Shown here: positions 1 to 20,016 of the stretch, in pieces | Numbering within the stretch: position 1 is the first letter of the stretch | How the letters are laid out: each line of letters starts with the position of its first letter | Origin: Patescibacteria group bacterium | GTDB taxonomy: Bacteria > Patescibacteriota > Minisyncoccia > Minisyncoccales > UBA5738 | Length of the DNA: 64,000 nt | Reading direction: 5' to 3' | NCBI GenBank assembly: GCA_034678605.1 | Contig: JAXDBQ010000032.1 | Coordinates: 40,265-104,264, forward strand | Translations under genes and position numbers: made by a program | Notes under the pieces: generated by a model | Told to the model about the DNA's origin: nothing | What the model saw: the letters and a program-made list of their open reading frames with translations, nothing else | The model's database searches: none

Positions 1-6
1 TCCCTC

Positions 7-1968
7 TTATGAGGGATTTTTTATGGGTTTGGGCTTTTCGCGGGCGACATTGGCCATGGGCTGGTTGGGCGAAGATCGGGCGGGTGCCGGATCTTCGATT
101 GGTTCGCTATAGGGCGATTCGGGCTGGTCGGCGGGCGGTTGGCCGCGGTTTTGATCTTGCCGGCTTTCCGGGGCCGCCGCCGCGGCTCCCTTTTGGATTT
201 CTTCTTTGGCGCGTTTGATCTTGGCGATCTCTTCGGGATTGGTGGTGATGATCTGGTCTTCGATGTAGGAAGACACCACTTTCATGGCCACGTGTTTTTG
301 GCCGGCAAAAAACAATCCCTCCCCGATCTCGGCTTCCAAAAGCATTCCTTTTTCTCTTTCGGTGAGGTTGAAGGTTTTTTGCACCACGTCGATGGTGGCC
401 GGCGATTGTTTCAGCAAGAATTGGATCGAAGAGTTGGTGATGATCGGCTGGCCGTAATTTGAGCGCATAAAGTCGGCCACGTCCTGGGTGATGGTGGTTA
501 CCCCCAGCCAATACTTGCGGGCGCGCTTGCACAGGCCGTACAAAAACGACGCGCCGTCTTCGCTTTGCATCAGCACCCAGGCCTCATCCACCACCAGGAT
601 CCGTTTGCGCAATTTGGAGCGGACTTTGTTCCAAATGTAGTGCATGATAATATACATCGCCGCGGTGCGCAATTCGTTTTCCATGTCGCGGATGCCAAAC
701 ACCACCAGCGGTTTTTCCATGGAAATGTTGGTGGGTTGATTGAAAAATTCGGCATAGGTGCCTTGGGTGAACTTGCGGATCCGGCGCACCAGCGAATCGG
801 TGCCGTCCATGCCTTCCAGCACCGCCTCAAGGTCGCGCATCAGCGGGACGCGTTCGGCCCATAAATTGGGGTCGGTTTCGGGGGTGATGTCTTTGGCGGC
901 ATAGACCTCGGTGAGCGCCCGATCGATGATCGCGTCCTCTTCGGGGGTCATGCCGCCCAAAAGAATGCGCACTAAGCCCACGATATTGATGATGTTGGAC
1001 CGGATCACATCGGCCGGATTTTCGTCTTCCCGTGGGTCGGGCAAGTCAAACGGGTTGATGTGGTAGGCCGACGACAGCGAAACATTCATAAACGATCCTC
1101 CCGTCGCTTCGGCCAAGGTTTTAAATTCGTTTTCCGGGTCAACCACAATGGCGTCCACGCCCAGCATCATGGAACGCAAGATCTCCAATTTCACCGCGTA
1201 GCTTTTTCCCGAACCGGATTTGGCGAAGATCACGCTGTTGGCGTTTTCCAAACTGAACCGGTCGAACAGGATCAGCGAGTTGTTGTGCAGGTTGGTGCCG
1301 TAAAGGATGCCCTCGTTGGCCGAAAGGTCGAACGATACGAATGGAAAGGTTGATGACAGCGGGCTGGTGTTCATCGGCGTGTAGATTTGGATTTTGTCCA
1401 AGGCGTAAGGGCAGGTGGAAATAAATCCTTCCCGTTGCTGGTACATTGCCGGTTTGATATAGACTAATTTTGATTCCAAGATCGAACGCAGGGTGGTTTC
1501 GATGTCGCGCAGTTTTTCGGCGTTATTCTCATAAGCGGTAAGATAGATTCCCAGGCGGAACATCCGTTCGGTGGAAGTTTGCAGTTTGTCGCGCAAGGAC
1601 TCCAAATCTTGGTAGGCGATGTCCAGCGCCGGGTCGCGCACCAGTCCTTTTTCTTCCCGCTCCATGATTTCGGCTTGCACTTCGGTGAGTTTTTTGCGCA
1701 ATTGTTTGAGAGTGGTGCCGGTGTCGATGGGATTGATGTGAAAAGCCACGTCCATGGGCGTGTCGAGATTAATCACCGGCGTGAACCACCCCGAGTTTAA
1801 ATAGCGCGGGTAGGAAAAAATAAAAAACGATTTGCCGAACCGCTCCCCGATCTTGAAGTTGTCGGCCAGCAGGACGACCGACGACGGCGCGATAATGTCG
1901 CGGATATTGATCGTTTTCATTTGCAATTCCTCGCCGGGAATGGATATTTTTTTGCTCTTTTTAACCAT
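7..1968 (-). CDS. virB4: Type IV secretion VirB4/TrbE-like ATPase, C-terminal ATPase portion (N-terminal ~220 aa encoded separately by 2142..2801)
   Basis: ORF 7..2028; Walker A FAKSGSGKSYAV; conserved VirB4 blocks IRDIIAPSS...FSYPRY..GWF and VVDPENEF; stop TAA at 7-9; the first 20 codons of the track ORF read through a palindromic repeat, so start is placed at ATG 1966-1968 (MVKKSKK). Confidence 0.7.
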   Translation of the reverse strand: MVKKSKKISIPGEELQMKTINIRDIIAPSSVVLLADNFKIGERFGKSFFIFSYPRYLNSGWFTPVINLDTPMDVAFHINPIDTGTTLKQLRKKLTEVQAEIMEREEKGLVRDPALDIAYQDLESLRDKLQTSTERMFRLGIYLTAYENNAEKLRDIETTLRSILESKLVYIKPAMYQQREGFISTCPYALDKIQIYTPMNTSPLSSTFPFVSFDLSANEGILYGTNLHNNSLILFDRFSLENANSVIFAKSGSGKSYAVKLEILRSMMLGVDAIVVDPENEFKTLAEATGGSFMNVSLSSAYHINPFDLPDPREDENPADVIRSNIINIVGLVRILLGGMTPEEDAIIDRALTEVYAAKDITPETDPNLWAERVPLMRDLEAVLEGMDGTDSLVRRIRKFTQGTYAEFFNQPTNISMEKPLVVFGIRDMENELRTAAMYIIMHYIWNKVRSKLRKRILVVDEAWVLMQSEDGASFLYGLCKRARKYWLGVTTITQDVADFMRSNYGQPIITNSSIQFLLKQSPATIDVVQKTFNLTEREKGMLLEAEIGEGLFFAGQKHVAMKVVSSYIEDQIITTNPEEIAKIKRAKEEIQKGAAAAAPESRQDQNRGQPPADQPESPYSEPIEDPAPARSSPNQPMANVAREKPKPIKNPS

Positions 1969-2141
1969 ACGATTTAAATTCAAGCACGAAGCACGAATAT
2001 TCGAAATTCGAAACAATATCAAAATCAAAAATTTTCAAAAATCAAAAAACGAGCGTGCATTTTGTTTTGGAAATTATGATTTTGGAAATTTGATATTATT
2101 TCGGATTTCGAAATTCGATATTCGGATTTCCCGAATTTATC
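1969..2141. repeat. Family-1 palindromic intergenic element (cgaatattcgaaattcgaaacaatatc ... cgaaattcgatattcggatttc) lying between the two virB4 fragments
   Basis: Arms are inverted copies of the motif seen at 8 other loci in this window; 173 bp, not a multiple of 3. Confidence 0.65.
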
Positions 2142-2801
2142 CTATTGGATCAATTCGGGCGGGATTTCCGGATAATATCCCCTTTCCGAGTCCTCCAAGT
2201 GATGCGTGCTCCACAAAAATTCGGCGATCTCCAAACTGTTGAGCGGCACGCATTGCAGGCCGCACCGCCGCAGGCCCAAGGCCACGAATTCCATTCGTTG
2301 CAGCAATTGGGATTTTCCCTGGTTGAATTGGTCGGCCGCCGCTTGGGCGATTTTGGCCCGGTCGGCCGGAGACACTTTCCCCTTTTTTGCTCCGGCCGGC
2401 GCCACGCCGGGCAGGATAATCTGTTGAAACGGCACCGTCACATAGAATGATTTGTTCATGATGGTGCCGCCCGAAACGATTTCGTTGATGAAATTGCGGT
2501 ATTCGATGATTTGGGCGCGCAAAAGATCGTTGCTTTGTTTGGCTTCAAGGTCGCTTAATTTGTCCAGATAGCTGGTGATGTTGAGCCGCCGGCTTTGGAT
2601 GGTGATCTGGATGGGAAAATCCATCGAGTTAAGAAAGTTTTGGAACTGGCCGATGACGGCGTTTTGTTCCTCTTCGGCCATGAGCGCGAAATTGATGGAA
2701 TTGACCATCATTATCCCCCGCAGGCCTTTGTTTTTCAAAACCAAAATCCCCTCTTTGATCTGGTCGATTTCCAAAAATTGTTGAGTCGATAGAATTGCCA
2801 T
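2142..2801 (-). CDS. virB4: VirB4 N-terminal domain fragment (split gene or pseudogene)
   Basis: 219 aa; block ILVLKNKGLRGIMMVNSINFALMAEEEQNAVIGQFQNFLNSMDFPIQI matches the conserved N-terminus of Gram-positive/CPR VirB4 (TraE/PrgJ-like); ends 113 bp upstream of the ATPase ORF. Confidence 0.55.
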   Translation of the reverse strand: MAILSTQQFLEIDQIKEGILVLKNKGLRGIMMVNSINFALMAEEEQNAVIGQFQNFLNSMDFPIQITIQSRRLNITSYLDKLSDLEAKQSNDLLRAQIIEYRNFINEIVSGGTIMNKSFYVTVPFQQIILPGVAPAGAKKGKVSPADRAKIAQAAADQFNQGKSQLLQRMEFVALGLRRCGLQCVPLNSLEIAEFLWSTHHLEDSERGYYPEIPPELIQ

Positions 2802-2913
2802 GATAAAAGTTTAAAGCGTAAAGCGCAAAACTTAAAAGAAAAAATGCGGATTATTAAAAGTGTTAAGCGAATTTGTATTTTACTTTACGCTTTTCGCTTT
2901 ACACTTTACGTTT
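2802..2913. repeat. Family-2 A-rich repeat (AAAGCGTAAAGCG / CGCTTTACGCTTT units)
   Basis: gtttaaagcgtaaagcgcaaaac ... ctttacgcttttcgctttacactttacg. Confidence 0.6.
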
Positions 2914-3330
2914 TTAAGCGGTTTCCAACCAGTCGCGGATCTTTTGGACATTGTTTTTGGCGGGGGCGGCGTTGATGGCCACGGTGGTCGGGGCTTTTTG
3001 GAAAACGATCTTTTCTCGCGCCACCACATGCTGGTTGGGGTTTTGAAAGCTTTGCCACAAAAAAATGCGCGGCGCCATTGAAAAAACAAAAAAATGTTGG
3101 ATTACTTTGACAATGTCGATGCCGTCGATCTTCACGAAGGCCAGGGCGCAACAGCCGCCCATGACGATGGCGATCAGCGCCAAGGCCAGCGGCATCACCG
3201 CTTTGCCCAGGGAAAAATAAATGGAAAACGACAGCACCGTGCCCACCGCCACGAACACGAATTGCTTGAAAGTGAGCGGCCCCACCACCTTGGACTCCAT
3301 CTCGATGAATTGCGGAATGGTGAAATTCAT
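2914..3330 (-). CDS. PrgI/VirB3-like small two-TM membrane protein
   Basis: 138 aa, two hydrophobic helices (VFVAVGTVLSFSIYF, LALALIAIVMGGCCALAF), lies immediately upstream of VirB4 as PrgI/VirB3 does in Gram-positive T4SS. Confidence 0.5.
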   Translation of the reverse strand: MNFTIPQFIEMESKVVGPLTFKQFVFVAVGTVLSFSIYFSLGKAVMPLALALIAIVMGGCCALAFVKIDGIDIVKVIQHFFVFSMAPRIFLWQSFQNPNQHVVAREKIVFQKAPTTVAINAAPAKNNVQKIRDWLETA

Positions 3331-3334
3331 AAAA

Positions 3335-3500
3335 GCGTAAAGCGTAAAGTGAAAAGCGCAAAGTAAGAAATACGGGAAGCGTAAAGCGTAAAGTGAAAAG
3401 CGTAAAGTAAGAAATACGGGAAGCGTGAAGCGTAAAAATTAAAGCGTAAAGCAAGAAACGCAAAGCGAAAAACGAAAAGTAAAATGCGGGCGCGAAAGGC
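3335..3500. repeat. Family-2 repeat with 59-bp tandem duplication (gcgtaaagcgtaaagtgaaaagcgYaaagtaagaaatacgggaa x2.3)
   Basis: Direct reading; the 185-aa track ORF 2906..3463 is a translation of this repeat. Confidence 0.7.
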
Positions 3501-3663
3501 GAAAAAATAAAATCACAAATAAGAATACCAAAGTTGGGGCGCGCTATTTTTTGATTTGAATTTATGTTTTGCGCTTTTCGCTTTACGTTTTTATTATATC
3601 ATCGCCCGCCAAAACCGCAAAACCGCCTTGCGGCGGTTGCGAGCGAGAAGCAACGCGGGATCG

Positions 3664-4002
3664 TCAAACCTCAATGCCGAATTTTTTGATTTGCGCCGGC
3701 AAAGAAAACCAGCGGTTGGCAAGGTCATTTTCGCTCAAGAAATGCGGCTCGATCTTTATTTCGATCTCTTTGGCCCACCAAGCGCTGCGGTCGATTTTGG
3801 CGCGGTTGAAATCCTGGCTTGAATCCAAAACCACCGCCACGTCGATGTCGCTGTCGACGCGCGGTTTGCCTTTGGCGTAGGACCCGAACAAGATCATTTG
3901 TTTCACCGGCAGCCCTTCGGCCAGCAGTTTTTGCTTGAATTTATTGACCGCTTTTTTAACTTGGCCGGCGCTTAATTTTTTTCTTATCGCTTTGTTAGCC
4001 AT
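3664..4002 (-). CDS. Minimal nucleotidyltransferase (MNT) antitoxin-type protein
   Basis: GSYAKG....DSDIDVAV nucleotidyltransferase signature; 112 aa; overlaps the HEPN ORF by 19 bp. Confidence 0.8.
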   Translation of the reverse strand: MANKAIRKKLSAGQVKKAVNKFKQKLLAEGLPVKQMILFGSYAKGKPRVDSDIDVAVVLDSSQDFNRAKIDRSAWWAKEIEIKIEPHFLSENDLANRWFSLPAQIKKFGIEV

Positions 4003-4253
4003 GAATAAAATTTATTGATTTTTCCCAGCCAGGCCGCGGCGTATTTGGCGGTGGCGGTTTTGTGGAATTCCATTTTTTCCTCCGGATACCGGCCCTGGAT
4101 GTTGAATTTGTTGACGCTCGCCAAGAATTCCTGCTGATCCGGTTCCAATTGGATTTTGGCCAATCCGGCCAAATACAGCAAATCATGGGAATGGGGCGCG
4201 TGGCTGTCGGTGCTTTTCACGATTATGTGTTTGAAATATTTTTCCAAGGCCAC
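3984..4253 (-). CDS. HEPN domain protein (toxin partner of MNT)
   Basis: HSHDLLYL ... GRYPEE motifs of PF05168-type HEPN; operonic overlap with the MNT gene. Confidence 0.6.
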   Translation of the reverse strand: MALEKYFKHIIVKSTDSHAPHSHDLLYLAGLAKIQLEPDQQEFLASVNKFNIQGRYPEEKMEFHKTATAKYAAAWLGKINKFYSWLTKR

Positions 4254-4695
4254 ATGGCCGCAAAAAAGTGCGTGGTCGTAATATTTTTTTGCGAAAACAT
4301 CGTTGGCCAGTTTTAGCGACTTTTTTGATCCTTTGAGCTAAAAATCCGCGATTTTTTCCTTTGAAAATTCCATAATTTTGATGGTTTTAATATACAACAA
4401 TCGGCGCAAAAATAAAAGCCGCAAGATCTCGCTTCGCGCTTTTGGCCGGTTCCGGTCGAGAATGTGAAACTCTTCCCCATTTGAACAAAGAAGCCGGGGG
4501 TCGTCGGTTTTTTGTTTGAATTTAAAATCCATTGCAATGGTTAGAGCGTTGCAGAAGATTAAATCCGCCATTATCCCCGCCCCGCCCGCCCGCTCCCTGT
4601 TTTTTACCCCCGCTTTCGTGTAAAAACTGCCGAGGTCAGACCTCGGCAATTTTAAACCAAGTTGCATTTAGAATGAGAATTTAGTTCGGTTAACA

Positions 4696-4724
4696 TTGAC
4701 AAAATCACCAAAATATGCTATAAT
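4696..4724 (+). promoter_or_regulatory. Consensus sigma70 promoter TTGACA-17 nt-TATAAT
   Basis: ttgacaaaatcaccaaaatatgctataat; followed by a 5'-UTR hairpin agcgcactaatttgcgct and RBS GGGAGG at 4794-4799. Confidence 0.7.
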
Positions 4725-4805
4725 CCAACCATGATCTTTGCAAAATAGCGCACTAATTTGCGCTCATAATGTATCGATTAGTTGAATGAAAAAGGGAGGT
4801 ATGAT

Positions 4806-5168
4806 ATGGGAATGTATTGGTTAAAATTAAGAGCTGATCTTGCATTAATTATTTGTTGGGTAGCTACGCCGCTGATTACATGGTGGTTGATCGCCAATTA
4901 CTGTTGGCCATGGATGTATGAGGATGATTTGAATTTTATAGAGTCGATCATTCTTTTTGTTCTTGCGATAATCATCATGAGTTATTCATGGCATTATCGG
5001 AAAATCATGCTGGCCGAGTATCGCAGATCAATGGTTAATGCGGGATTGATGTCAGATTGGCGGCCACCCGCACCAACGCAAAAATCAAAGTCGGCCAAAG
5101 AAGCGTTCATCGAAGAAATAATTGCAGAAGTTAAGGAAGAAATTAGCCCAGAAGGAGGTAAAAAGTAA
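4806..5168 (+). CDS. Small two-TM membrane protein, hypothetical
   Basis: Track ORF 4782..5168; ATG at 4806 is 6 nt after GGGAGG; W-rich helices; stop overlaps the next start (TAATG). Confidence 0.5.
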   Translation: MGMYWLKLRADLALIICWVATPLITWWLIANYCWPWMYEDDLNFIESIILFVLAIIIMSYSWHYRKIMLAEYRRSMVNAGLMSDWRPPAPTQKSKSAKEAFIEEIIAEVKEEISPEGGKK

Positions 5169-6340
5169 TGCCATTGCCGATTCCTTCGATCCCATGGTGG
5201 GCAGTTGTTCCATCGGCTGGGGTTGGGGTTGCCGGATTATCCGCTTGGATGGTATGGGACTGGATTCCCAATAAAAGAAAAACTCCCCTTTTCCGCGGAC
5301 AAGATGGTCGTTTCTATTTTATTGCAAGAGGTCAGAATAATTTTAATCCTGTAAGAAAGAATGAGGTTGGCAATGCGGCTGGCCTTGAAACTGACGGGCC
5401 GGTTATTGGTGGCTTTCTTGTTTATAAAGGGTTCCAATATCGGAAACAAGCGGATACAGATGATTCCGATATGATTATTGCCAAGGGATTGGATGATCGC
5501 GGGGTGTTTAATTCTGGTTTGTATTGGATTGGATTATTGGGCGTGGTAAAGATCCATACCAATAAGTGGGAGGAATTCGTAGAAAAAGAAGGCAAACGAG
5601 AATTGGTAACTTTTGTCCGGCGAGAATATGGATTTTCCGCCCAAGTAACAAATATGGGCGGCAGAACGGCTCCGAGCGAAGATAAGGGTAATGTGCCGAT
5701 TGAGATCGATTATGAGATATATTGGCGCATAGAGTGTCCCGACAAAGCGAAGCGCGAAGTTGATGATGCCAACTACAAAGCTATTGGGCTTATAGATGGC
5801 GAAATCGTTGCTTGGATTAACTCGCAAGCTATTTATCGGTTTGAGACCGATACGACGGGCAAGATTGTTGCGGCGAGTATGGATAAGGAGGCGATAAAAG
5901 CAGAATTAATCAAGCATCTTCAAAACAGCAAAGTTTATGCTAGAGTCAGGGAAACATATGGATATCAGATAACGGAGTTTGTGGTCCACGATATTGTTCC
6001 GTTGGGTGAATTCGCCGAATTATTGGCATTAGGGGCGAAAACCGATTTACAAGAAAGCGCAAAATTGAGAAAACTTCAATGGCAGCAAACCCAAGCCGTT
6101 ATTGAAGTTGGTATCCAGGAGCAGTGGGCGCTTTTGTATCGCAACAATCCTGAAGCGGTTGTTAGAGGAATTATTGTTGCGGCAGAGAAACATGGCTTGC
6201 CAATAGTATCTAACACGGTTGAAACACTGTTGAGAGGCGCGGCAAAAGGAGGAGAAGTAATTCCGGCAGAGGATATTGCCAAGATTGCGGCAATGGTTAT
6301 GGGGATGATTGATGAAAGAAACAAAAAACAAATTAAATAA
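5168..6340 (+). CDS. Hypothetical protein with N-terminal membrane anchor (possibly SPFH-like), translationally coupled to 4806..5168
   Basis: 390 aa; N-terminal hydrophobic segment WWAVVPSAGVGVAGLSAWMVW; RBS GGAGG 7 nt upstream; no confident family match. Confidence 0.55.
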   Translation: MPLPIPSIPWWAVVPSAGVGVAGLSAWMVWDWIPNKRKTPLFRGQDGRFYFIARGQNNFNPVRKNEVGNAAGLETDGPVIGGFLVYKGFQYRKQADTDDSDMIIAKGLDDRGVFNSGLYWIGLLGVVKIHTNKWEEFVEKEGKRELVTFVRREYGFSAQVTNMGGRTAPSEDKGNVPIEIDYEIYWRIECPDKAKREVDDANYKAIGLIDGEIVAWINSQAIYRFETDTTGKIVAASMDKEAIKAELIKHLQNSKVYARVRETYGYQITEFVVHDIVPLGEFAELLALGAKTDLQESAKLRKLQWQQTQAVIEVGIQEQWALLYRNNPEAVVRGIIVAAEKHGLPIVSNTVETLLRGAAKGGEVIPAEDIAKIAAMVMGMIDERNKKQIK

Positions 6341-6370
6341 ATACCCCTGATAAGGGTAAAATAATCCAAA

Positions 6371-6400
6371 AACCACTTTTTATTAAGTGGTTTCTTTTTT
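6371..6400. terminator. Bidirectional rho-independent terminator between convergent genes
   Basis: aaaaaccactt-ttttatt-aagtggtttctttttt. Confidence 0.6.
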
Positions 6401-6408
6401 GGCTATAT

Positions 6409-7680
6409 TTATTTGCTTCTTAAATCTTCTGAAGGTGCTCTTGTGCTGTAAATTTCTTGCCGGACGCCGTAATCAAAGCTTTTTGATTTTGATTCTATTC
6501 CTTGTTCCAGCCCTTGTTTAAATCCGGGATTTTTTCTGTTTCCGGAAAGTCCTTTGCCGAGGGCGCCTCCCACTCCTCCGAGGCTGCCGGAAACTTTATC
6601 GCTTATTTGTCCGCTGAGAGCAGGAATCATCCCGGCGCAAATCGCTTCTACGGCCATCATGTAAATTGCGATCGCAAGCCAATAAAAATGGCGATCAGTG
6701 ATTGTGGAAACCACGTAAGTGCTAAATGTTAGCGGGGTATATTGGATATTCGCCGGCATTATCATTTTTGCCGAACTTAATCCCAGTGTTAGTAAAAACA
6801 GCATCACAATCCCTCCCAATGTCCAGCCGGTAAGCCAGCTCATCCAAGTGCGGAAATGAGATTCTGTTTTTTGCAAAACGCTGGCCAAAATTGCCAATGG
6901 CGCGAGAACGGCGAGTAATTGGATCATAAACACCCTGGTTAGGAAAAACATTGCATAGGAAAACAGAATGCCGGTAATCGTGCCCATCACCATTATTTGG
7001 ATTAAAATGTTTGGCAAAGTGGTGAGCATTAATAAAAACATACCACCAACCAATGCCAAACCGGCAAGAATGTTCACTCCAAGGATTGCCGAAGAAGTTG
7101 CGCCGGCAAGATAAATCCCAAATAATGTGGCGGCGCTTTTGGCGATATCCCAAGCAAAAACATTGAAAACTGAAGAAAAAATATCTCCACTGCCAACCAT
7201 TAAGCCAGTAGTTATTATGTTGGAAATATCCAATAACATGCCCACAAATAAGGGGGCAAAATGAATTAGCAGCGCGGCAAAAAAGAATTTTACCAGATTT
7301 TTTTTCGCGTTTATCGATTCTATGTTAAAAACTGTTCCCAATGCGATGGCGATAAAAACAACGATTAATAAAATGTCGGCCAAAGTGGTGGTGATGTTGA
7401 GGCCGGTTTTAACAAATACGCTGTTGTTTAGATCAAGCATTTGCGGAGTTTGGTCCAGCGAGACCTTGAGCAAGGTAGTGGCGGCTAATAAATATATCAA
7501 CCCGGTGGATAGTTGCTTGAACAAATCAAAAATATACTGCGTTACTGGTTTTACGTAATTTGAAAGCATTACTTCCATGCTGGCGGATTGGGCAATTGCG
7601 TGTTGCGGAATAATGCAAAGGGCTATTATTGATAATATACTTACGGATATTATTAATAAAATTTTTGTTGTTGTTTTCAT
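6409..7680 (-). CDS. VirB6/TrbL-like polytopic membrane protein with signal peptide
   Basis: Track ORF 6409..7710; likely start MKTTTKILLIIS at 7680; at least 7 predicted TM helices; size and topology fit VirB6-like channel proteins of Gram-positive/CPR T4SS loci. Confidence 0.5.
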   Translation of the reverse strand: MKTTTKILLIISVSILSIIALCIIPQHAIAQSASMEVMLSNYVKPVTQYIFDLFKQLSTGLIYLLAATTLLKVSLDQTPQMLDLNNSVFVKTGLNITTTLADILLIVVFIAIALGTVFNIESINAKKNLVKFFFAALLIHFAPLFVGMLLDISNIITTGLMVGSGDIFSSVFNVFAWDIAKSAATLFGIYLAGATSSAILGVNILAGLALVGGMFLLMLTTLPNILIQIMVMGTITGILFSYAMFFLTRVFMIQLLAVLAPLAILASVLQKTESHFRTWMSWLTGWTLGGIVMLFLLTLGLSSAKMIMPANIQYTPLTFSTYVVSTITDRHFYWLAIAIYMMAVEAICAGMIPALSGQISDKVSGSLGGVGGALGKGLSGNRKNPGFKQGLEQGIESKSKSFDYGVRQEIYSTRAPSEDLRSK

Positions 7681-7690
7681 TATTTCAATT

Positions 7691-8956: not shown

Positions 8957-8965
8957 TTTTTTATG

Positions 8966-9724: not shown

Positions 9725-9960
9725 AGTAGTAAAATCAATATCGAATGTCGAATATCGAAATCCGAAACAATATCGAATATCAAAATTTTCAATATCAAAG
9801 GGAAAACAGGGGGCGAAATTTTATTTGCGAAAATCAAACAGCCAAATCAATATCGAATGTCGAATATCGAAATCCGAAACAATATCGAATATCAAAATTT
9901 TCAATATCAAAACGAAAACGGGATTTTAATTCAATACAATTAACGCAAAATTAACGCGGA
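9725..9960. repeat. Family-1 palindromic element containing an internal 65-bp direct duplication (period about 116 bp)
   Basis: caatatcgaatgtcgaatatcgaaatccgaaacaatatcgaatatcaaaattttcaatatcaaa occurs twice; only 2 long copies, so not CRISPR. Confidence 0.7.
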
Positions 9961-9972
9961 ATCAATACAAAA

Positions 9973-10335
9973 TCAGTCGGATTTTCTGACGATTGAACCA
10001 AAAATTTTCATCAATTCTTCGGCTTCTCGCAAAAGAATATTTTGTTCTTTTGCCAATTCTTGATTATTGCCATTATCGATCAATTTCAACCAATAACAAG
10101 TTTCTTTGGCTTCTTTGCGGCTGATTTTAACGCGCATATTGAAATCTTTTTTGCTCAACGCTTCGTTGGCTTCGATGTAATTGGCCCCGATTGATCCGGA
10201 AGATCGAGCGAGCTGTTTGATGTCTTCCAAATTTGAAACCGTGCGCGGCAATTTTTTCAAAAACAATCTTGTGTTTTTCGCGAACAAATAAGTTCTTTTT
10301 TCCAAGTTGTATGGTTTTGAATTTGTTTCAGTCAT
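9973..10335 (-). CDS. Four-helix-bundle protein (23S rRNA intervening-sequence protein family)
   Basis: GSIGANYIEANEALSKKDF...ISRKEAKETCYWLKL hallmark; 120 aa; flanked on both sides by family-1 repeats. Confidence 0.8.
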   Translation of the reverse strand: MTETNSKPYNLEKRTYLFAKNTRLFLKKLPRTVSNLEDIKQLARSSGSIGANYIEANEALSKKDFNMRVKISRKEAKETCYWLKLIDNGNNQELAKEQNILLREAEELMKIFGSIVRKSD

Positions 10336-10395
10336 TTGATATTTGAAAATTCGATATTGTTTCGATATTCGAAATTCGATATTCGGATTTGTGTT
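10336..10395. repeat. Family-1 repeat fragment
   Basis: aaaattcgatattgtttcgatattcgaaattcgatattcggattt. Confidence 0.6.
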
Positions 10396-12924
10396 TTAGA
10401 TTTGCCACCATGTTCCCGAGTAGCCGAACAGCGACAGGAATACGCCCACGATCAGCCAGGCAAAGAACAGCAGGCCGTAGCCGATGCCGATTAGTTTCCA
10501 CCAGGAGATGACTTTTTGCTTTAAATCGGGCGTGGAAAAATTGGTGAAAAATATTCCGGCGGTGGCAAGCCCCAAAATGGGCAAAAGCCAAAACGACATT
10601 TGGAACAAGAATAAATTAATGATCTGCATCGCGTTGAGCAAAAGGTGCTTTGCGCCGCATTTTTCGCGGTCATCCCATTCGGTGTTGGGGTTGTCGTTGG
10701 TCATGCCGCACACGGCCATCACTGCCTGCCCTTTTTTGATTTCTTGGCCGCCGGCCACAAAATCAAAGCTCCAAATTTCGGGCGTGGCGCCCGCGTCTTT
10801 GCATTGCGCGTCCAAGCAGGCCAGCACGCTCCATTGGTATTTGCCCAAGCAGAACATCTGGTCGATGTCGTTGTCCACCATTATCGAAGTGTCTTTGACG
10901 ATCTTTTCCACTTTGGGCCCGGGAGCGCAATCTTTATTGGTTTCCTTTTCCGAAACCTCTTTGTATTCCAAGGCGACTTTGTAATAATGCGCGCCGGCCA
11001 CCGGCTGCCACGATAGGTTGTAAGCGATTTGGCTGTTGTCCAGCGTGCTGCTGGCATTGGCCGGCGTTTTGGAGGCACCCAGGGCCGCGGTGGCAAACGA
11101 AAATTCCGGGCCGGCCGGGCCGCAAAGCGCGGCGCTGGCGTCGGCGCAGGTTTGCACTTTCCATTTATAGGATTGTTTTTGGTTGATGGTCGGATAGTCC
11201 AGGGTGTATTGGTTGGTAGCAGTTGTGATCTTTTGGCCGCCAAAATCCAAAATATAGGCCTTGGCGCCGGCAACCGCTTCCCATTGCAATTCAACCGGCA
11301 TGGCTACATCTTTGGCATTGTTGGTCGGTTGCATGGACGCGGTTTTGGGCGCGCGGCCGGTGGTGCGAAAATACCACCAGTCCGACCACGGCTCGTTGCA
11401 CACCTCGCCCACCGGAATTGCCGGCCAGCAGGACTTGGCGCGCCATTTGTAGGCCGTGTCCAATTCCAGTTCGATGTTTTGTTCTTCGCCTTTGGAATTA
11501 TTGGCGTTGCCTTTGGTGAAAAGCACTTGCGAAGTGGTCACGCGGCGTTCGCCGTTGACCAATGAGGTCGCGCCGGCGCCGGAAATTTTTTGAATGTCAT
11601 AGCCATAGGAATTGGCGCCGTTGGGCGCTTGCCATTGCAGGCGGCCGGGAAGTTCGGTGAGCTTGGCGTTTTGGTTGTCGGCATAATTGTTGTCGTTTCC
11701 CGGCGACAAAAGCGCGGGCGCGGGAACGGTTTCGTTTTTATCGGTGAAGGTCCACAACTGCCCCCAATATTTGTCGCTTTGGGTGTTGCAGTTTTCGTCG
11801 CCGGCATTGGTATTGTTGAAACAGCGCCGCAATTGCCAGTAATAGGTGTTGTTTTTGGTGAACAGCGCCCGGTCGGTGTTGGGCAATTGAAGGTGCGACC
11901 ACCAATAGCAATCGATAGCGGGGTTGTTGGCCAAGCATTTAACGTTTCTTGGGGTTTTGGCCTTGATGGGATTGACTACGTCGGCCTTGCAGGTGTTGTT
12001 GGTTTGTTTTTCCAGATAATGGCAGGCCAGCGGGTTTTTCAGCGCCGGCGTGTCTTTTTTGAGCCAATTGGCCAAGTCGCTGAATTTGGCCGGGATTTGC
12101 GCGCCGGTGAGCACCAATTGGTTTTCGTTGGTGTAGACGCGCATTTGGTATGACAGCGAATAGGGCTCGTTTTCGTTATAGGGCTGTTTTTCTTTTGAGA
12201 CCTGCGCGTGGCACCAATCCAGCCGCAGGTTTTTGTAGGAAATATTTTTGGCGCCGGCCGGGCCGTTCCAATCGGGATCGTCAAAATTTATCGGTTCGGG
12301 CGCCGGGCTGGTGCGAAAGGTCCACCAAGTGGCGTTTTCTTCGGGCTGGCAATAGGAGCCGTTTTCCTTGCAACACGGCCGCACGCGCCAACGGATGGTT
12401 TTGTCGGAGTTGTAAAAGCAGGGGTAATACAAATCCCGAGCGTTGAACTCGTTGGTGGTGAGGATTCGGCGGAAAATGCCGCCTTTGCTTTCGTCGTCGT
12501 TTAGTTCGCCGTTTTTGTTTTCGATCTCCAAAAGATAGGAGCGCGCGCCATAGGCCTTGGAGGTGGCGGCTTGGTTGCCCTGGCGGCCGTCCCATTCCCA
12601 ATGGTATTGGCCGTTTTCCAATTGCCACAAGGCGATGTGATCCCAGGCCAGCACCACCGGCAAAGTAACTTCGTTTTCGTTGGCTTGTTTGGTTTTGTTC
12701 ACCGGATCATCCAAGTAATAATGGCCGGGCGGGGTTTTTAAACAAGCGTTGGCGCAAATGCAGGTGGTCACGTCAACTTCCACCACATTGGTCATGGATT
12801 GTTTTTGTTCGGGCTGGCATTGAATGCCGCCGGCGATTGTGGCGCCGCAACCGCTTTCGGCGATCGCCGCCGCCGGCGCGATCAACGCCAGCGCCAGCGC
12901 GAGTTTGAAAAAATTGGTTTTCAT
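10396..12924 (-). CDS. Giant secreted surface protein: signal peptide, tandem FN3-like disulfide-containing repeats, C-terminal VirB2/TrbC-like two-TM pilin domain
   Basis: 842 aa; signal MKTNFFKLALALALIAPAAAIA; about 6 repeats with Y.W.V..C....C....W.F.T signature; C-terminus LLPILGLATAGIFF...KLIGIGYGLLFFAWLIVGVF is paralogous to the C-terminus of 13136..16084. Confidence 0.7.
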   Translation of the reverse strand: MKTNFFKLALALALIAPAAAIAESGCGATIAGGIQCQPEQKQSMTNVVEVDVTTCICANACLKTPPGHYYLDDPVNKTKQANENEVTLPVVLAWDHIALWQLENGQYHWEWDGRQGNQAATSKAYGARSYLLEIENKNGELNDDESKGGIFRRILTTNEFNARDLYYPCFYNSDKTIRWRVRPCCKENGSYCQPEENATWWTFRTSPAPEPINFDDPDWNGPAGAKNISYKNLRLDWCHAQVSKEKQPYNENEPYSLSYQMRVYTNENQLVLTGAQIPAKFSDLANWLKKDTPALKNPLACHYLEKQTNNTCKADVVNPIKAKTPRNVKCLANNPAIDCYWWSHLQLPNTDRALFTKNNTYYWQLRRCFNNTNAGDENCNTQSDKYWGQLWTFTDKNETVPAPALLSPGNDNNYADNQNAKLTELPGRLQWQAPNGANSYGYDIQKISGAGATSLVNGERRVTTSQVLFTKGNANNSKGEEQNIELELDTAYKWRAKSCWPAIPVGEVCNEPWSDWWYFRTTGRAPKTASMQPTNNAKDVAMPVELQWEAVAGAKAYILDFGGQKITTATNQYTLDYPTINQKQSYKWKVQTCADASAALCGPAGPEFSFATAALGASKTPANASSTLDNSQIAYNLSWQPVAGAHYYKVALEYKEVSEKETNKDCAPGPKVEKIVKDTSIMVDNDIDQMFCLGKYQWSVLACLDAQCKDAGATPEIWSFDFVAGGQEIKKGQAVMAVCGMTNDNPNTEWDDREKCGAKHLLLNAMQIINLFLFQMSFWLLPILGLATAGIFFTNFSTPDLKQKVISWWKLIGIGYGLLFFAWLIVGVFLSLFGYSGTWWQI

Positions 12925-13049
12925 TTTATTTTTGTTTTTTGTTTCAATTTAATTATATCGCTTAAAAATCAAAACCGCAATTTTGAAACAAATTTAATCA
13001 ATTGCCGGGACAAGACGAACGTTAGTATTTGGATTCAAATGCTGTTGAC

Positions 13050-13088
13050 GGGGTCTAACCGCCCGCGAGTACTCGGGGGTTAGACCCC
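13050..13088. other. GGGGTCTAACC...GGTTAGACCCC hairpin element (family 5), reverse orientation
   Basis: 11-bp perfect stem with palindromic loop; related copies at 31381 and 60383. Confidence 0.55.
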
Positions 13089-13135
13089 AAAAAATGCTAA
13101 TACTCGGTTTGCTTTGACAAGCTATTGCTATAAAA

Positions 13136-16084
13136 TCACAATAGCGCGTTCCAGCTGGCGGCGGCGCTGTAGCCGGCAAATTGCATTAATAGTGAAACGA
13201 TGATCCAGGCGAAGATCAAGATCAAATAGCCGATGCCGATCTTGCGCCAGGTGTCTTTAATTTCGGCCAAAAGCTTTGATTTGTCTTGTGCCAGATAAAA
13301 AATTCCGCCGGTGATCGCGCCGGCGATTGGCAACAGCATCAACGCCAATTTGAAGATCACAAAATTAATGATCACCTTGGCCAGCAAAAACAAATGTTTT
13401 ATTTGGCAGGGCTCTTTTTCGTTGTATTCGGGCGTGTTGATTTTGTCGTCATAGTTTTGGCCGCAAACCATCAAGCCGGCGGTTTGTTTTTTTTCGATGA
13501 TCGAAAATGTTTGGGTGGCTTTTTTCGCGCCCGAACTCAATGATTTGCATTGGGAATCAAACGCCGGCTGAACCGAAAAGGAATATTGGCCGCCGCAATA
13601 TTGCGAGCTGCCGGTCTCTTTTGATTTGATCGCCAAACTGGTGCCGGCAACGCATTTTTCTTTATACTCATCGTTGAACCATTTTGGATCGCAACTGGTG
13701 CTGTCTTCGCCGCCGGCCACTTGAACGCTCACTTGATAATATTTGGCCGCGCCGCTCCAGCTCAAGCTTGGCGGAAGCTGGTTGATTTGATCTTCTGGCG
13801 CCAATCCCGTTGGCTTGTCAAAGTCCGCGGTTTTGAACGGCAGGATGTTGGTTTTGGCCGCACCGCAAATTTGTCCGGCCGCGTCGGCGCAAGTTTTCAC
13901 CGTCCAGTCGTATTTTTGATCAAAGGCCGAATAGTTAAACGAATATTGCGCGGCGGTGAGTACCAATTCGTTTTTGGGCGCGTCCGGGCCGGTGATCTTG
14001 ACGCGATAAGAACCGGCGCCGGGAACGCTTTCCCATTCGAGCGCGGCCGTGGGTGCGCTGGTTTTGGCGGTGGCGGTGAGCGGCGGACGGCCGGTGGTGT
14101 AAAAATAATTTGCCGGGCTCAACGACTTGCTGCAAATTTCATCGATCTTTTTGTTGGCCATGGGTATTGACGGCCAGCAGGATTTGACTTGCCATTGGTA
14201 GAGCGTGTCGAGTTTTAATTTTACCCGTCCGGGGTCGTTTTCTTGCGCCGGATCTTTGTCGGTTGTTAATGATATTAAAATTTGCGACACGGTCGCGCGC
14301 CGGCCTTGGTCGGCGGTATAAGTTTTATCTTTCTCAAAGATGCTGGCGCCGGTCTTGGCGTCTTTGATGTCGTAAAGGAAAGAGTTGGCGCCGCAGGGGG
14401 CCGTCCATTGAATGCTTCCGCCCTCTCCCACCAATCCCACCGGATCGCGGTTGCTTTTGTTTTTGTTGTTTGGCGGCGCCAACGGCGCGGGCGCGGTCAA
14501 ATTGGTGTCGGTGAACTTTTCGCCGGAGAATTTCCATTTTTGGCCGTAATCTTCATTATTGTAAGTGGCGCAAAACGGGAATTGCTTTTCGTCACCTTTT
14601 TTACCGGAAATGACATCAAAGCAAACTTTGGTTTGCCAAGAATAGATAAGATTCCCGTCGGCGTTGCCGGAAAAAAGGTTGCGGATCTTTTCTTGGTCAA
14701 AATACGGATGGAAATTCTGGTTTGGCTCAATAATCTCTTTTAAGTAGCTTGTGAACGGCACGCTTTCCGGTCTGCAGGTGCCGTCGTTTTGCAGTTCCAA
14801 ATAGTGGCACGACTCGCCGTCGCGTTGGCTTTCGGGCTGGTTGAAGGCGTTGAGGGCTTTGTTTTTCACTCCGGCCAATGATTTTGAAAGGTAATCGGAA
14901 AAGGCCTGGCTCAAATTGTTTGACCAAGAGCTGCTTGATAGCGTTTTTTGCATTATTGATTGGTAGTCCGACGGGCTTGTCCCGCCGATACTTCCCAAAA
15001 GATCCATCAGCGACCATGTTTCATTGAATTTAACGCGCATCTGATAATTGGCGGCATAATCAGCTTGGCTGGCATTATATTTTTTTGAGAAACGCGCGTT
15101 GTCGTCGGTCATCAATTTGGCTTTGCACCAATAGGGCTTGGCACTGCAAAAATGAACATCGGTTAATTTATCCGGGCCGTTCCAATCGGGGTCTTGGGTT
15201 GGATTCTTTTTGTTCGGGTGATTGTTGTCAACAATTCCCAGCGGTTCGGGTCCCGGGCCGGTGGTGAATGTCCACCACCCTTCGTCGTTTCCCATGGGTT
15301 TGCAGGTTGATTCTTCGCCGTTGGCGTCGCAGCAAGGTCGCACGCGCCATTGGTAGGCGGTGTTGGTGTTAAAAAAACATGCTCCCCCGTCCTCGCGGGA
15401 ATTAAACCCATCATTGATGCCGTCGTTATTTTTGTCGGCGATCACTTTGAAAAATATTTTGCCGCCGCCCAGCGCCTCGATGTTGTTGGGGTTGATGGTT
15501 TTGTCAATGTGCAGATTCGCGTCGCCGTTTTTGTATTCCTCATATTTGATCTCCACCCGGTAGCTTTGCGGGCCGCTGTCCACTTTTGTCGGTCCGTTTT
15601 TATATATCGGCGTTTTGTAAGGGTCTTTGTTTTTCCAACCGGCAATATCGTTCCATGCCAAAACCACCGGCAAAGTGATTTGGTTTGATTTTGTTTGCCG
15701 GGTATGATTTTTGGGATCGTCATAATACAAGGGGTTGGCGCTTGAATCAAACGGGGCTTCCAAGCATTCTTTTTCGCATTTGCACACGCCATAGTCGCTG
15801 CCGGTTTTGGCGACTTGCCAATCTTTGCAATATTGCATTGGTGGCCGGATGATCTTGCATTCTCCCGGCTTGCCTCCGGGAACTTCTCTTAATTCTTTTA
15901 TGAGCGAGCTTTTTCCATTTTGGTTGTGGCATTTACTATCATTGATTTGCTCTTCGTAATATTTTATATGTCCCGAACATGCTTTAGCTTCATTGCTAAA
16001 ACCAAAAATTATTACTGTTGAAAACAGCATAATCGAAAACGCGCGGAAAAAAATAGTTTGATTGCTTTTTAAAAATCGGGTCAT
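13136..16084 (-). CDS. Giant secreted surface protein, paralog of 10396..12924 (FN3-like Cys repeats plus C-terminal VirB2-like pilin domain)
   Basis: Track ORF 13136..16120; likely start MTRFLK at 16084; shared motifs RVRPCC...WWTFTTGPGPEP, DPDWNGP; C-terminus KHLFLLAKVIINF...LLPIAGAITGGIFY...KIGIGYLILIFAWIIVSLL. Confidence 0.7.
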   Translation of the reverse strand: MTRFLKSNQTIFFRAFSIMLFSTVIIFGFSNEAKACSGHIKYYEEQINDSKCHNQNGKSSLIKELREVPGGKPGECKIIRPPMQYCKDWQVAKTGSDYGVCKCEKECLEAPFDSSANPLYYDDPKNHTRQTKSNQITLPVVLAWNDIAGWKNKDPYKTPIYKNGPTKVDSGPQSYRVEIKYEEYKNGDANLHIDKTINPNNIEALGGGKIFFKVIADKNNDGINDGFNSREDGGACFFNTNTAYQWRVRPCCDANGEESTCKPMGNDEGWWTFTTGPGPEPLGIVDNNHPNKKNPTQDPDWNGPDKLTDVHFCSAKPYWCKAKLMTDDNARFSKKYNASQADYAANYQMRVKFNETWSLMDLLGSIGGTSPSDYQSIMQKTLSSSSWSNNLSQAFSDYLSKSLAGVKNKALNAFNQPESQRDGESCHYLELQNDGTCRPESVPFTSYLKEIIEPNQNFHPYFDQEKIRNLFSGNADGNLIYSWQTKVCFDVISGKKGDEKQFPFCATYNNEDYGQKWKFSGEKFTDTNLTAPAPLAPPNNKNKSNRDPVGLVGEGGSIQWTAPCGANSFLYDIKDAKTGASIFEKDKTYTADQGRRATVSQILISLTTDKDPAQENDPGRVKLKLDTLYQWQVKSCWPSIPMANKKIDEICSKSLSPANYFYTTGRPPLTATAKTSAPTAALEWESVPGAGSYRVKITGPDAPKNELVLTAAQYSFNYSAFDQKYDWTVKTCADAAGQICGAAKTNILPFKTADFDKPTGLAPEDQINQLPPSLSWSGAAKYYQVSVQVAGGEDSTSCDPKWFNDEYKEKCVAGTSLAIKSKETGSSQYCGGQYSFSVQPAFDSQCKSLSSGAKKATQTFSIIEKKQTAGLMVCGQNYDDKINTPEYNEKEPCQIKHLFLLAKVIINFVIFKLALMLLPIAGAITGGIFYLAQDKSKLLAEIKDTWRKIGIGYLILIFAWIIVSLLMQFAGYSAAASWNALL

Positions 16085-16091
16085 TAGATAA

Positions 16092-16910
16092 TTATAATTC
16101 AAAAGAGCGGGCAAGGCCAATCCAATTTTCCACGGCCAGGTCTTGCGCCCGGCAATTTCGCGGCAGATCGTTTTTGGCCAGCCATTCGATTGCTCGTTCG
16201 CGGCTGATATTCAAGCCGCCGGCCAGATTGCCGGCCAATTGTTTGCGCGGGTGGGCAAAGCCGGCTTTGGCGATCTTAAAGAACCGATCGATGAATTCTT
16301 TTTTGCACCCCTCCCCTGCTTTCGGAAACAGGTCGAGGCGCAGGATCGCGCTGTCGACTTTGGGCACGGGCCAAAAACAGCCGCGCGAAATTTGGCCGAT
16401 GATATTTGGCGCGGCATAGAACTGCACCGACAATGCCAACAAGTTCATTCGCGGCGGCTGGGCGCAAATTCTTTGCGCCACTTCTTTTTGCGCGATCACC
16501 GCCATTGATCGCGGCGGATTGCCGCTTTCCAAGAATTTGCGGATCATGGGCGCGGCGGCGTAGAAAGGCAAATTGGCAACGATCTTATAAGGCGGGATGA
16601 TCTTGCTTTCGTTGAATTTGAGCGCGTCGGCATTGATGATCTCGACATTTATCGCGTCGGCGAATTCTTTTCCGAGGATTGCGGCCAGCTCGCGGTCTTT
16701 TTCCACGGCAATCACGCGGTTGCCGGTTTTGGCCAATTCCCGCGTCAAATTGCCGGTGCCCGGGCCGATCTCCAAAATCGTTTGGTTATCTCCAAGCTCG
16801 GCGGCGGCGATCAATTTTTTGATCACGCCGATTTGGTTCAAAAAATTTTGCCCCAGCCGTTTTTTGGGTTTGACGGATGGTTTTTGGTCGTTTGTGTTTA
16901 TCATGATCAT
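16092..16910 (-). CDS. rsmA: 16S rRNA (adenine1518/1519-N6)-dimethyltransferase
   Basis: KKRLGQNFL, LEIGPGTGNLT SAM-binding motif; 272 aa. Confidence 0.9.
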   Translation of the reverse strand: MIMINTNDQKPSVKPKKRLGQNFLNQIGVIKKLIAAAELGDNQTILEIGPGTGNLTRELAKTGNRVIAVEKDRELAAILGKEFADAINVEIINADALKFNESKIIPPYKIVANLPFYAAAPMIRKFLESGNPPRSMAVIAQKEVAQRICAQPPRMNLLALSVQFYAAPNIIGQISRGCFWPVPKVDSAILRLDLFPKAGEGCKKEFIDRFFKIAKAGFAHPRKQLAGNLAGGLNISRERAIEWLAKNDLPRNCRAQDLAVENWIGLARSFEL

Positions 16911-17027
16911 GCGTATATGTTTATTCTATCATAATTGCAAAAAATCATGGGTCTGTTGCCAAATAGGGTTTGTAGCGAAATTTAAAGATTTCGTCTTTGG
17001 TAACAGACCCATCATTGACCCGGCAGT

Positions 17028-17098
17028 GAATTTTTGGCGGGATTTTTTTAAAAAATCAATTATCGCCAAGCGAGCCGAAAATCTACTGCCGGGTTGAC
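17028..17098. repeat. Family-4 75-bp palindromic element (cccggcagtgaatttttggc-hairpin-aattatcgccaagcgagccgaaaatctactgccggg)
   Basis: Second copy in opposite orientation at 49091..49176. Confidence 0.65.
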
Positions 17099-17133
17099 AA
17101 ATATCGCCGATCTTATAACATTATTAATGTAAA

Positions 17134-19938: not shown

Positions 19939-20016
19939 GGAAGCGTAAAGCGTGAAGCGAAAAATACGGCGCCGCGTTTTTGTTTTATGTTTTACGTTTT
20001 TAGTTTCGCGCTTTTT
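19939..20016. repeat. Family-2 repeat (ggaagcgtaaagcgtgaagcgaaaaatacgg ... tttacgtttttagtttcgcg)
   Basis: Direct reading. Confidence 0.55.

Follow-up and report, generated by a model that had tools for sequence, protein, structure and literature searches.

A chromosomal type IV secretion locus from a Patescibacteria bacterium encodes giant surface proteins predicted to end in pilin modules

The window analysed here, 64,000 nt of contig JAXDBQ010000032.1 from a Patescibacteria group bacterium, carries a series of minus-strand open reading frames (ORFs), spanning positions 16084 down to 7, that probably make up an origin-proximal chromosomal type IV secretion system (T4SS) of the Patescibacteria, derived from the MPF-FATA class and displaying giant pilin fusions as host adhesins on a pilus or fibre. 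In order of transcription the locus encodes two giant secreted proteins (giants 1 and 2), a PF05635-family protein, a PsbP-like protein, a 421-aa pilin and a VirB6-like protein and then, beyond a variable stretch, PrgI, a TrsD-like protein and VirB4; its likely function is that of a host-contact pilus or adhesion machine. An earlier note, made from the sequence alone, had proposed a T4SS-derived, apparently non-conjugative surface apparatus in a candidate phyla radiation (CPR) chromosome, which our analysis supports, and every ORF that it named was present when the ORFs were checked by coordinates on the minus strand. Its functional reading also agrees with the literature, because the locus matches the published Patescibacteria T4SS; its suggestion that this was not a described system did not hold, since that T4SS is described in PMC12102498 and is essential in Southlakia epibionticum (PMC10633639). 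For comparison we recovered 14 related loci, labelled L001 onward, and compared gene order in the ten longest (L001-L010); identities in relatives are given relative to the window proteins. Names given to homologues, by NCBI among others, suggest the Paceibacteria.

Giant 1 (13136-16084, minus strand; 982 aa from the ATG at 16084, also counted as 994 aa) comprises a signal peptide, a Cys-rich array of beta-sandwiches and a C-terminal pilin-like helix-loop-helix; a transmembrane (TM) scan gives the signal peptide, two C-terminal TM helices and 28 Cys. Giant 2 (10396-12924, minus strand; 842 aa) likewise combines a signal peptide with a C-terminal pair of TM helices, and the two giant secreted proteins of the earlier note are confirmed. 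The two are paralogues sharing 32-34% identity, with 26-28 Cys each. An AlphaFold2 (AF2) model of giant 2, built on a 37-sequence alignment (predicted local distance difference test, pLDDT, 82.9), places beta-sandwich domains at residues ~25-725 and helices at 758-793 and 799-832. When its ectodomain was searched with Foldseek, the matches were to FN3/Ig arrays, among them contactin (9e-16) and the GhpA neck, from the grappling-hook protein of Aureispira (1e-12), and the ectodomains of the giants' relatives match the families fn3, Pur_ac_phosph_N and Ig_Rha78A_N. On this modelling, each giant is predicted to be a Sec-exported stalk of ~7 FN3/Ig-like, disulfide-rich domains that ends in a complete VirB2-like pilin module.

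The pilin assignment is carried by comparisons at the level of the family. Of the 32 giant-family members, 14 match the T4SS pilin family PF18895 at E<=0.01 (4.4e-6 for the best); in hhalign the C-terminal 125 residues of the giant family align at E 2e-5 with the pilin domain of the 421-aa family, and a hidden Markov model (HMM) built from the giants' C-termini picks out, at E 2e-6, a 138-aa pilin that stands alone in another part of the window. In a joint alignment the C-terminal ~125 aa of the giants cover the whole mature 138-aa pilin in register, with invariant C, G, C, G, G and Y, and the module is laid out as a C-G...C..H motif, a helix, a loop, a second helix and G-Y. The giants also show the signal peptide and the two hydrophobic helices with a short polar loop that are expected of a pilin. 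Some giant homologues carry the NCBI name 'pilin'; no NCBIfam model behind that name was revealed, and a profile search of PDB sequences with the pilin module gave nothing useful. Because of the PF18895 matches in the family, the hhalign result, the match to the small pilin and the joint alignment, we regard the giants, as judged by sequence, as N-terminally extended pilins. The C-terminal VirB2-like domain claimed in the earlier note therefore stands at family level, where the AF2 hairpin agrees with it, and the copies in the window are themselves sub-threshold.

In one distant locus (L020:10001-13285; also P0081/P0082), the single pilin-module giant, of 1094 aa, also has an M23 peptidase domain, which would put a peptidoglycan hydrolase on one polypeptide with a pilin module.

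Two smaller pilins accompany the giants. The VirB2-like pilin of 421 aa (7691-8956, minus strand), which bears a 284-aa Cys-rich C-terminal extension, passes the cut-offs of both PF18895 (40.1 bits against 26.6; 3.8e-10; residues 71-137) and NF045849, the Mbov_0395 pilin-like family (45.2 bits against 40; 5.3e-12). It has a signal peptide, two TM helices and, in the whole protein, 21 Cys, and is 36-53% identical in relatives; its C-terminal tail has no PDB sequence match. A 10-nt gap separates its gene from the VirB6-like gene if the latter starts at the ATG at 7680, and a 20-nt overlap arises only with the alternative TTG start at 7710. The stand-alone VirB2-like pilin of 138 aa (26999-27415, minus strand) is encoded 11 kb away from the locus, with the genes for tRNA-Lys and tRNA-Arg on either side. 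The protein, with its signal peptide, two TM helices and C-G...C..C-H motif, matches PF18895 (6.5e-5) and TrbC/VirB2 (4.2e-4), both under cut-offs, as well as our local pilin HMMs (2e-6 and 1.4e-4); we consider it a candidate major pilin.

The three promoter-distal genes of the locus, encoding PrgI, the TrsD-like protein and VirB4, belong to the cytoplasmic-membrane core; the neighbouring same-strand genes upstream of them, for the two giants, the PsbP-like protein, the 421-aa pilin and the VirB6-like channel or assembly protein, supply the envelope parts. The VirB4 ATPase (7-1920, minus strand; 637 aa, and called at the same length in the same-strain contig L019) scores 365.5 bits against the conju_CD1110 model NF045971 (cut-off 325; 5.4e-109), covering positions 163-733 of its 752, and also matches P-loop_TraG (2e-24) and AAA_10 (2.3e-13); it is 84-88% identical in relatives. 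The preceding gene, which the earlier note had left unnamed, encodes a TrsD/TraC-like protein of 219 aa (2142-2801, minus strand) that matches positions 2-120 of the CD1110 model (8e-6) and the TrsD model (2.6e-5), both under the curated cut-offs, and its orthologues in relatives (76-83% identity) match PF26593, TraC-like. Since the two ORFs cover successive parts of the CD1110 model and the orthologues are TraC-like, the N-terminal part of VirB4 is here a separate, conserved gene. PrgI (2914-3330, minus strand) is a PrgI/VirB3-like protein with two TM helices that matches PF12666 at 45.7 bits (cut-off 27; 9.5e-12) and is 67-74% identical in relatives, being 138 aa long wherever it was called (L001-L006, L020, L021).

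The polytopic VirB6-like protein (6409-7680, minus strand; 423 aa from the ATG at 7680; identical protein P0001) has a polytopic helical fold like that of solved VirB6 and is 38-59% identical in relatives. It has no Pfam match of its own; PF04610, TrbL/VirB6, is matched by 6 of its 25 closest homologues (best 2.9e-5). Foldseek alone gave no significant match, and a profile search of PDB sequences with the family gave nothing useful. The family counts 7636 representative clusters at E<=1e-3, many of them 'extended' forms of 650-1400 aa, in which the C-terminal extensions have no Pfam annotation. Taken together, the HMM searches confirmed the VirB4, the PrgI/VirB3-like protein, the Cys-rich pilin, the four-helix-bundle family and the HEPN/MNT pair of the earlier note, and they did not assign its membrane proteins to unrelated families.

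Between the giants and the pilin lies a bitopic protein of 252 aa (8966-9724, minus strand) with an extracytoplasmic PsbP-like domain (PF18933, PsbP_2, 29.5 bits; cut-off 27) and a single N-terminal TM helix at residues 3-21. Its position is conserved in relatives at 41-50% identity, and PF18933 is found in 9 of 9 of them and PF01789 in 7 of 9. The 85 residues that make up the TM helix and the juxtamembrane part are almost invariant and the ectodomain is variable, which suggests that the membrane part contacts the conserved core. The earlier note had placed this protein in the VirB8 position, and its bitopic topology was correctly seen; we rejected an identity with VirB8 or PrgL, which carry an NTF2-like domain, as the ectodomain is PsbP-like and gave neither a VirB8 match nor a PDB sequence match.

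A divergently oriented plus-strand pair, preceded by a perfect sigma-70 consensus (4696-4724), follows the VirB6-like gene, from which it is separated by a bidirectional hairpin (6368-6395). The first gene encodes a small protein with two TM helices (4806-5168), for which no homologue is detectable in the related loci. The second encodes a 390-aa protein (5168-6340) that has no Pfam match; its family profile weakly matches PDB stomatins (4.4e-4 to 3e-3; 3bk6 at 4.4e-4, human stomatin at 2e-3), and a comparison with the window's own Band_7 protein in hhalign was likewise weak (E 1.2e-3, probability 19%). Homologues of the 390-aa protein stand on the opposite strand just after the VirB6-like gene in L001, L002, L005-L009, L013 and L018, at 25-35% identity. 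What had been called an unknown two-gene operon is therefore a conserved neighbour as far as the 390-aa gene is concerned, with a product that is divergent and SPFH-like on weak matches, and the 2-TM partner is without a homologue. A role for an SPFH protein beside a secretion machine would have a parallel in Staphylococcus aureus, where flotillin supports assembly of the type VII secretion system.

Upstream, giant 1 starts 8 nt after the stop codon of ksgA (16092-16910). Divergent from ksgA, and outside the coordinates covered by the earlier note, is a plus-strand gene for a LysM and M23 peptidase protein (17134-18204; PF01551 5.5e-25, PF01476 3.1e-21), which occupies the equal position in L001, L003, L004, L007-L010, L018, L020 and L021 and is a candidate VirB1-like cell-wall hydrolase; ComM (18415-19938) is a further conserved neighbour. 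The variable stretch between the VirB6-like gene and PrgI consists of the plus-strand pair and a HEPN/MNT pair (3664-4253). Since the rest of the window is made up of housekeeping genes (PNPase, CCA-adding enzyme, RecG, IF2, FtsH, IleRS, a MurE-like ligase and 11 tRNAs), the setting is chromosomal. Same-strain sequence was recovered as the short contigs L015-L017 and L019; in L019 jag directly follows virB4, and beyond virB4 in the relatives come jag-yidC-rnpA-rpmH and then dnaA-dnaN. As the earlier note had observed, neither a relaxase nor VirD4 is visible: among the window ORFs of >=300 aa, Pfam scans gave no match to relaxase or VirD4/type IV coupling protein (T4CP) families, and there was none in the precomputed Pfam annotations of genes called within the +/-10 kb flanks of the relatives. 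The window and the relatives' flanks also show neither an integrase nor an element border.

The locus is conserved as a unit, as the earlier note would lead one to expect. All of L001-L010 keep the order (ComM)-LysM-M23 (opposite strand)-KsgA-giant-giant-PsbP-like-pilin-VirB6-like-PrgI-TrsD-VirB4, and most of them have the opposite-strand SPFH-like gene between VirB6-like and PrgI. Giant 1 stands beside KsgA in L001, L003-L005 and L007-L010 and, by gene tables, also in L018 and L021. Giant 2 is 59-65% and giant 1 38-50% identical in relatives; the distant loci L020 and L021 keep the same plan with giants only 25-37% identical, L020 having a single giant, and in both the ORF in the VirB6-like position, placed there by position and not by homology, is 749-847 aa long.

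Comparison with a near-identical strain reveals a sharp discontinuity in the locus. Contig L018 (GCA_964551425.1) shares 96.5% DNA identity with window positions 10101-22930, and the similarity breaks abruptly inside the PF05635 gene (window ~10100; L018:12805). Left of the break the neighbouring proteins are 98.6-100% identical and the giants 91% and 96%; right of it identity is 56% for the PsbP-like protein, 39% for the pilin, 40% for the VirB6-like protein and 27% for the SPFH-like protein. Because identity drops so abruptly, we conclude that the envelope-exposed PsbP-pilin-VirB6-SPFH module has been replaced by recombination between near-identical strains; its far boundary lies past the end of contig L018. 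The synonymous divergence (dS) of the giants is 0.20 and 0.11, against 0.01-0.045 for ComM, LysM-M23 and KsgA (4-10x), and this excess, being mainly synonymous, again points to recombination. Positive selection on the giants is not supported, as the ratio of nonsynonymous to synonymous divergence (dN/dS) is 0.15-0.21. The swap points to parts of the machine that may set host specificity.

The T4SS at this locus is already known, in that it matches the chromosomal Patescibacteria T4SS of two earlier studies. In the survey of Quinonero-Coronel et al. 2025 (PMC12102498), Patescibacteria VirB4 forms a monophyletic clade related to MPF-FATA, with TrsD as its commonest partner, alongside PrgI, VirB6 and PF18895 pilins that include arrays. 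VirB8 and relaxases are almost wanting there, T4CPs lie mostly far from virB4, the systems are found near dnaA, dnaN, rnpA, ksgA and rpmH, M23/LysM hydrolases are named as possible VirB1 substitutes, and no adhesins were detected; a term search of the main text found no passage on fused or oversized pilins. In S. epibionticum, transposon sequencing (Tn-seq) identified both the array of pilins and the T4SS genes as essential for epibiotic growth (Wang et al. 2023, PMC10633639); a 2025 review (PMC12857230) offers the speculation that a pilus, built by the machine, serves as a conduit. With these systems the window locus shares the PrgI-TrsD-like-VirB4 core order, the VirB6-like protein and PF18895 pilins in the cluster, the M23/LysM candidates for VirB1, the lack of a relaxase or T4CP nearby and the chromosomal position beside dnaA, rnpA, rpmH and ksgA. 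It differs in its pilins and partners. The small pilins of the S. epibionticum cluster (SEML1_0006-0019; PMC10633639) number six; their PF18895 domains end at residues 99-180 and their genes, where listed, measure ~380-420 nt, whereas the cluster pilin modules here are fused to ~730-880-aa ectodomains (the two giants) or to the 284-aa Cys-rich tail; an NTF2-like protein of the VirB8 fold there contrasts with the PsbP-like bitopic partner here, and the divergent SPFH pair is a conserved neighbour at the window locus, unlike in S. epibionticum.

Among the monoderm MPF-FATA systems (CTn2 with its CD1110-type VirB4; pGO1 with TrsC/TrsD/TrsE; pCF10 with PrgI/PrgJ/PrgH), the shared features are a VirB4 above the CD1110 cut-off, TrsD-like and PrgI-like proteins and the absence of outer-membrane core components. 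Unlike the conjugative members, the window locus is without a relaxase, T4CP, oriT or PrgB-type adhesin and is fixed in the chromosome, and it has VirB2-like pilins, which Gram-positive conjugation systems do not have. The Mycoplasma integrative and conjugative element (ICE; Mbov_0395 pilin-like, Mbov_0397 VirB4) is related in that the 421-aa pilin passes NF045849 and that VirB4 and TrsD match NF045975, but VirB4 stays under the cut-off of the latter (289 against 590 bits), the locus is not mobile and the pilin module sits within much larger proteins. Compared with the Gram-negative VirB pilus and its R388 stalk of TrwI/VirB6 and TrwJ/VirB5, the locus gave no VirB5 or VirB7-VirB11 match in Pfam and NCBIfam scans, which is consistent with a monoderm-type system, and its pilins carry large ectodomains. 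The Pam pilus (Troman et al. 2026 preprint, 10.64898/2026.03.03.709456) is, like the structure proposed here, a CPR-specific surface filament with Ig-like domains for host contact; we rejected it as the identity of this system, as it works by donor-strand exchange with chaperone-usher-like factors and the preprint has no T4SS/VirB component. No discussion of giant pilin fusions turned up in the searchable literature; PF18895 itself led only to PMC12102498 and one structural atlas. As far as searched, then, the conserved pilin-fused giants, the PsbP-like and SPFH partners and the strain-level swap of the PsbP-pilin-VirB6-SPFH module are not described there.

In systems of the VirB type, VirB2 inserted in the membrane is extracted by VirB4 so that it can polymerise; the assembly platform is made by VirB6 and the tip is taken by VirB5, as seen in the R388 structure. 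By analogy, the PrgI-TrsD-VirB4/VirB6 core would treat the pilin modules, those of the giants as well as that of the 421-aa protein, like VirB2: they would insert in the membrane once exported by Sec, and VirB4, held there by PrgI, would draw them out at the VirB6 platform, as happens when Gram-negative pili are built. Small pilins such as the 138-aa protein would then form the body of a short pilus or surface fibre, on which the FN3/Ig stalks of the giants would be displayed as host-cell adhesins, along the shaft or, as we infer, at the tip. A VirB8-like scaffold is missing, and the PsbP-like protein probably takes over its part; the cell wall is probably opened by the LysM-M23 peptidase in place of VirB1, and the SPFH pair probably organises the membrane patch as a scaffold. 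Because one large lineage joins its pilin modules to long adhesin-like stalks and conserves them in cis with VirB6 and VirB4, we suggest that the output of the machine is a host-contact structure rather than DNA. We would go further only tentatively, and think it possible but doubtful that a Gram-positive-type T4SS here assembles a fibre whose pilin modules are fused to 25-30-nm FN3/Ig stalks, as VirB2-VirB5 hybrids, and that the PsbP-pilin-VirB6-SPFH cassette is exchanged between near-identical strains for host retargeting; we found no T4SS for which a hybrid subunit of this architecture is described. The first T4SS with a demonstrated essential role in the growth of its bearer is that of the Patescibacteria (PMC12857230, PMC10633639). 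The locus suggests a concrete, testable handle on what that machine moves or builds.

Several points weigh against the proposal of a pilus or fibre that displays the giants. Giant 2 matches PF18895 under the threshold (18 bits against 26.6; E 0.003, residues 783-829) and giant 1 does not match it, so that the hairpin could serve simply as a membrane anchor. The giants, at ~820 and 950 aa when mature, are far from the ~70-130 aa of a small mature pilin, mean column identity is only a little higher in their hairpin (0.57) than in the ectodomain (0.50), and a 700-900-aa N-terminal extension, or the 284-aa C-terminal extension of the 421-aa pilin, may for steric reasons be unable to pack into a helical filament of the VirB2 type. 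The assignment of the 390-aa protein to divergent SPFH/stomatin-like proteins is weak (E ~1e-3), and the probable roles of the PsbP-like, SPFH and M23 proteins are drawn from position and conservation. Pilus formation by any Patescibacteria T4SS is itself still a hypothesis (PMC12857230), and a T4CP may lie elsewhere in the genome, given that most T4CPs in the survey lie far from virB4 (PMC12102498). The main rival explanation builds on such points: the giants would be ordinary anchored surface adhesins beside a T4SS, the hairpin a two-helix anchor and the T4SS an independent channel for proteins, signals or nutrients. The sub-threshold scores and the marginal conservation of the hairpin speak for it, as do the suggestion that origin-proximal regions may gather highly expressed genes (PMC12102498) and the published S. 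epibionticum models, in which DNA or protein delivery by the T4SS is separate from the adhesins (PMC10633639). We nevertheless consider it rather unlikely, as a two-helix anchor would leave unexplained why the last ~125 aa of the giants reproduce the entire mature small-pilin module with its invariant residues, why the giants stay directly upstream of PsbP-pilin-VirB6 even where they are 25-37% identical, and why 14 of 32 family members match the T4SS pilin HMM. Should the giants prove to be no more than neighbours of the T4SS, what remains is a further instance of a published system.

That the T4SS instead imports DNA or other macromolecules from the host, in a ComB- or Ced-like manner, and so feeds a cell unable to make nucleotides is improbable. 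ComM is a conserved neighbour, no relaxase is present, uptake of host molecules has been suggested as a possibility (PMC12857230) and VirB4 weakly matches, far under their cut-offs, the archaeal DNA importers CedB (8.7e-14) and CedD. Against this, VirB4 matches the conjugative CD1110 family far better than any other, the locus showed no DNA-binding or ComEA-like component, and in S. epibionticum deletion of comEC abolished competence and left viability intact, the T4SS still being essential. A conjugative element, or the decayed remnant of one, is the least credible of the readings and very improbable: VirB4, PrgI, TrsD and the pilin are closest by HMM to Gram-positive and Mycoplasma conjugative elements, and a DDE transposase lies inside the locus in L005, but every relative examined has the locus at one fixed place, with ksgA on one side and jag-yidC-rnpA-rpmH-dnaA on the other, and with none of the integrase, relaxase, T4CP or boundary sequences of an ICE found in the window or the relatives' flanks. 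A conjugative element was therefore rejected on chromosomal context, and decay does not fit because the core proteins are strongly conserved, VirB4 most plainly.

Two of the gene sets within the locus are passengers and not core components. The PF05635 protein (9973-10335, minus strand; 120 aa; 49.7 bits, 4.7e-13) belongs to the 23S rRNA intervening sequence (IVS)/Avd-like four-helix-bundle family; its gene lies between PrgI and TrsD in L003, L004 and L021, a change of position at odds with the earlier view of it as part of the system. The family includes Avd proteins, and we considered a diversity-generating retroelement; this was rejected, since no reverse transcriptase family was matched in ORFs of >=300 aa, no pair resembling a template and a variable repeat (TR/VR) was found in 1-20000 and the gene position varies. 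The HEPN gene (3984-4253, minus strand; PF05168 1.2e-6) and the MNT nucleotidyltransferase gene (3664-4002, minus strand; PF01909 4.2e-11), which had been counted as a toxin-antitoxin pair of the system, have no counterpart in any related locus and are a strain-specific insertion. The HEPN gene is upstream of the MNT gene rather than downstream. It has a GTG start and covers only positions 34-114 of the 117-position model, and gene callers passed over it on Logan contig L015, where the sequence is identical; a truncated or degenerate gene is possible.

Intergenic repeats run through the region. The 30-mer TTCGATATTCGAAATTCGATATTCGGATTT has five matches, at 2100-2129, 10361-10390, 18355-18384, 25855-25884 and 37469-37498, with 0 expected by chance; related copies lie at 9732-9922, and inverted copies flank the PF05635 gene. 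It is a candidate REP-like (repetitive extragenic palindromic) element, regulatory site or mobile-cassette end. A second repeat, with the 7-nt periodicity AAGCGTAAAGCGTAAAG, has 18 matches where none is expected, concentrated either side of the PrgI gene; it occurs at 2807-2913, 3333-3492, 3549-3597, 19941-19957, 27588-27611 and 37590-37620 and produces a spurious 185-aa ORF at 2906-3463.

Elsewhere in the window, a 989-aa protein (20614-23583, minus strand) without cysteine and without a Pfam or NCBIfam match begins with a long, coiled-coil-like stretch rich in Lys and Glu; a single TM helix (749-767) and, at the C-terminus, a domain of ~200 aa follow. The AT skew of its region is strongly negative, and residues 219-989 are 100% identical in L018, where that contig ends. 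At 56800-60360 (plus strand) lies a 1186-aa isoleucyl-tRNA-synthetase-like protein in which a histidine-phosphatase domain (His_Phos_1, 1.4e-31, residues 504-666) separates the two halves of the class I catalytic domain. ARAGORN predicts a tRNA-Ile with anticodon TAT at 50962-51035 (minus strand); most bacteria read AUA with a lysidine-modified CAU tRNA and not with a TAT anticodon. Finally, the genes for an HTH_17 protein of 346 aa and, ~400 nt further on, a Fic/DOC protein of 361 aa, at 30051-32573 (plus strand) near tRNA-Pro and tRNA-Glu, may form a small mobile or toxin-like module.

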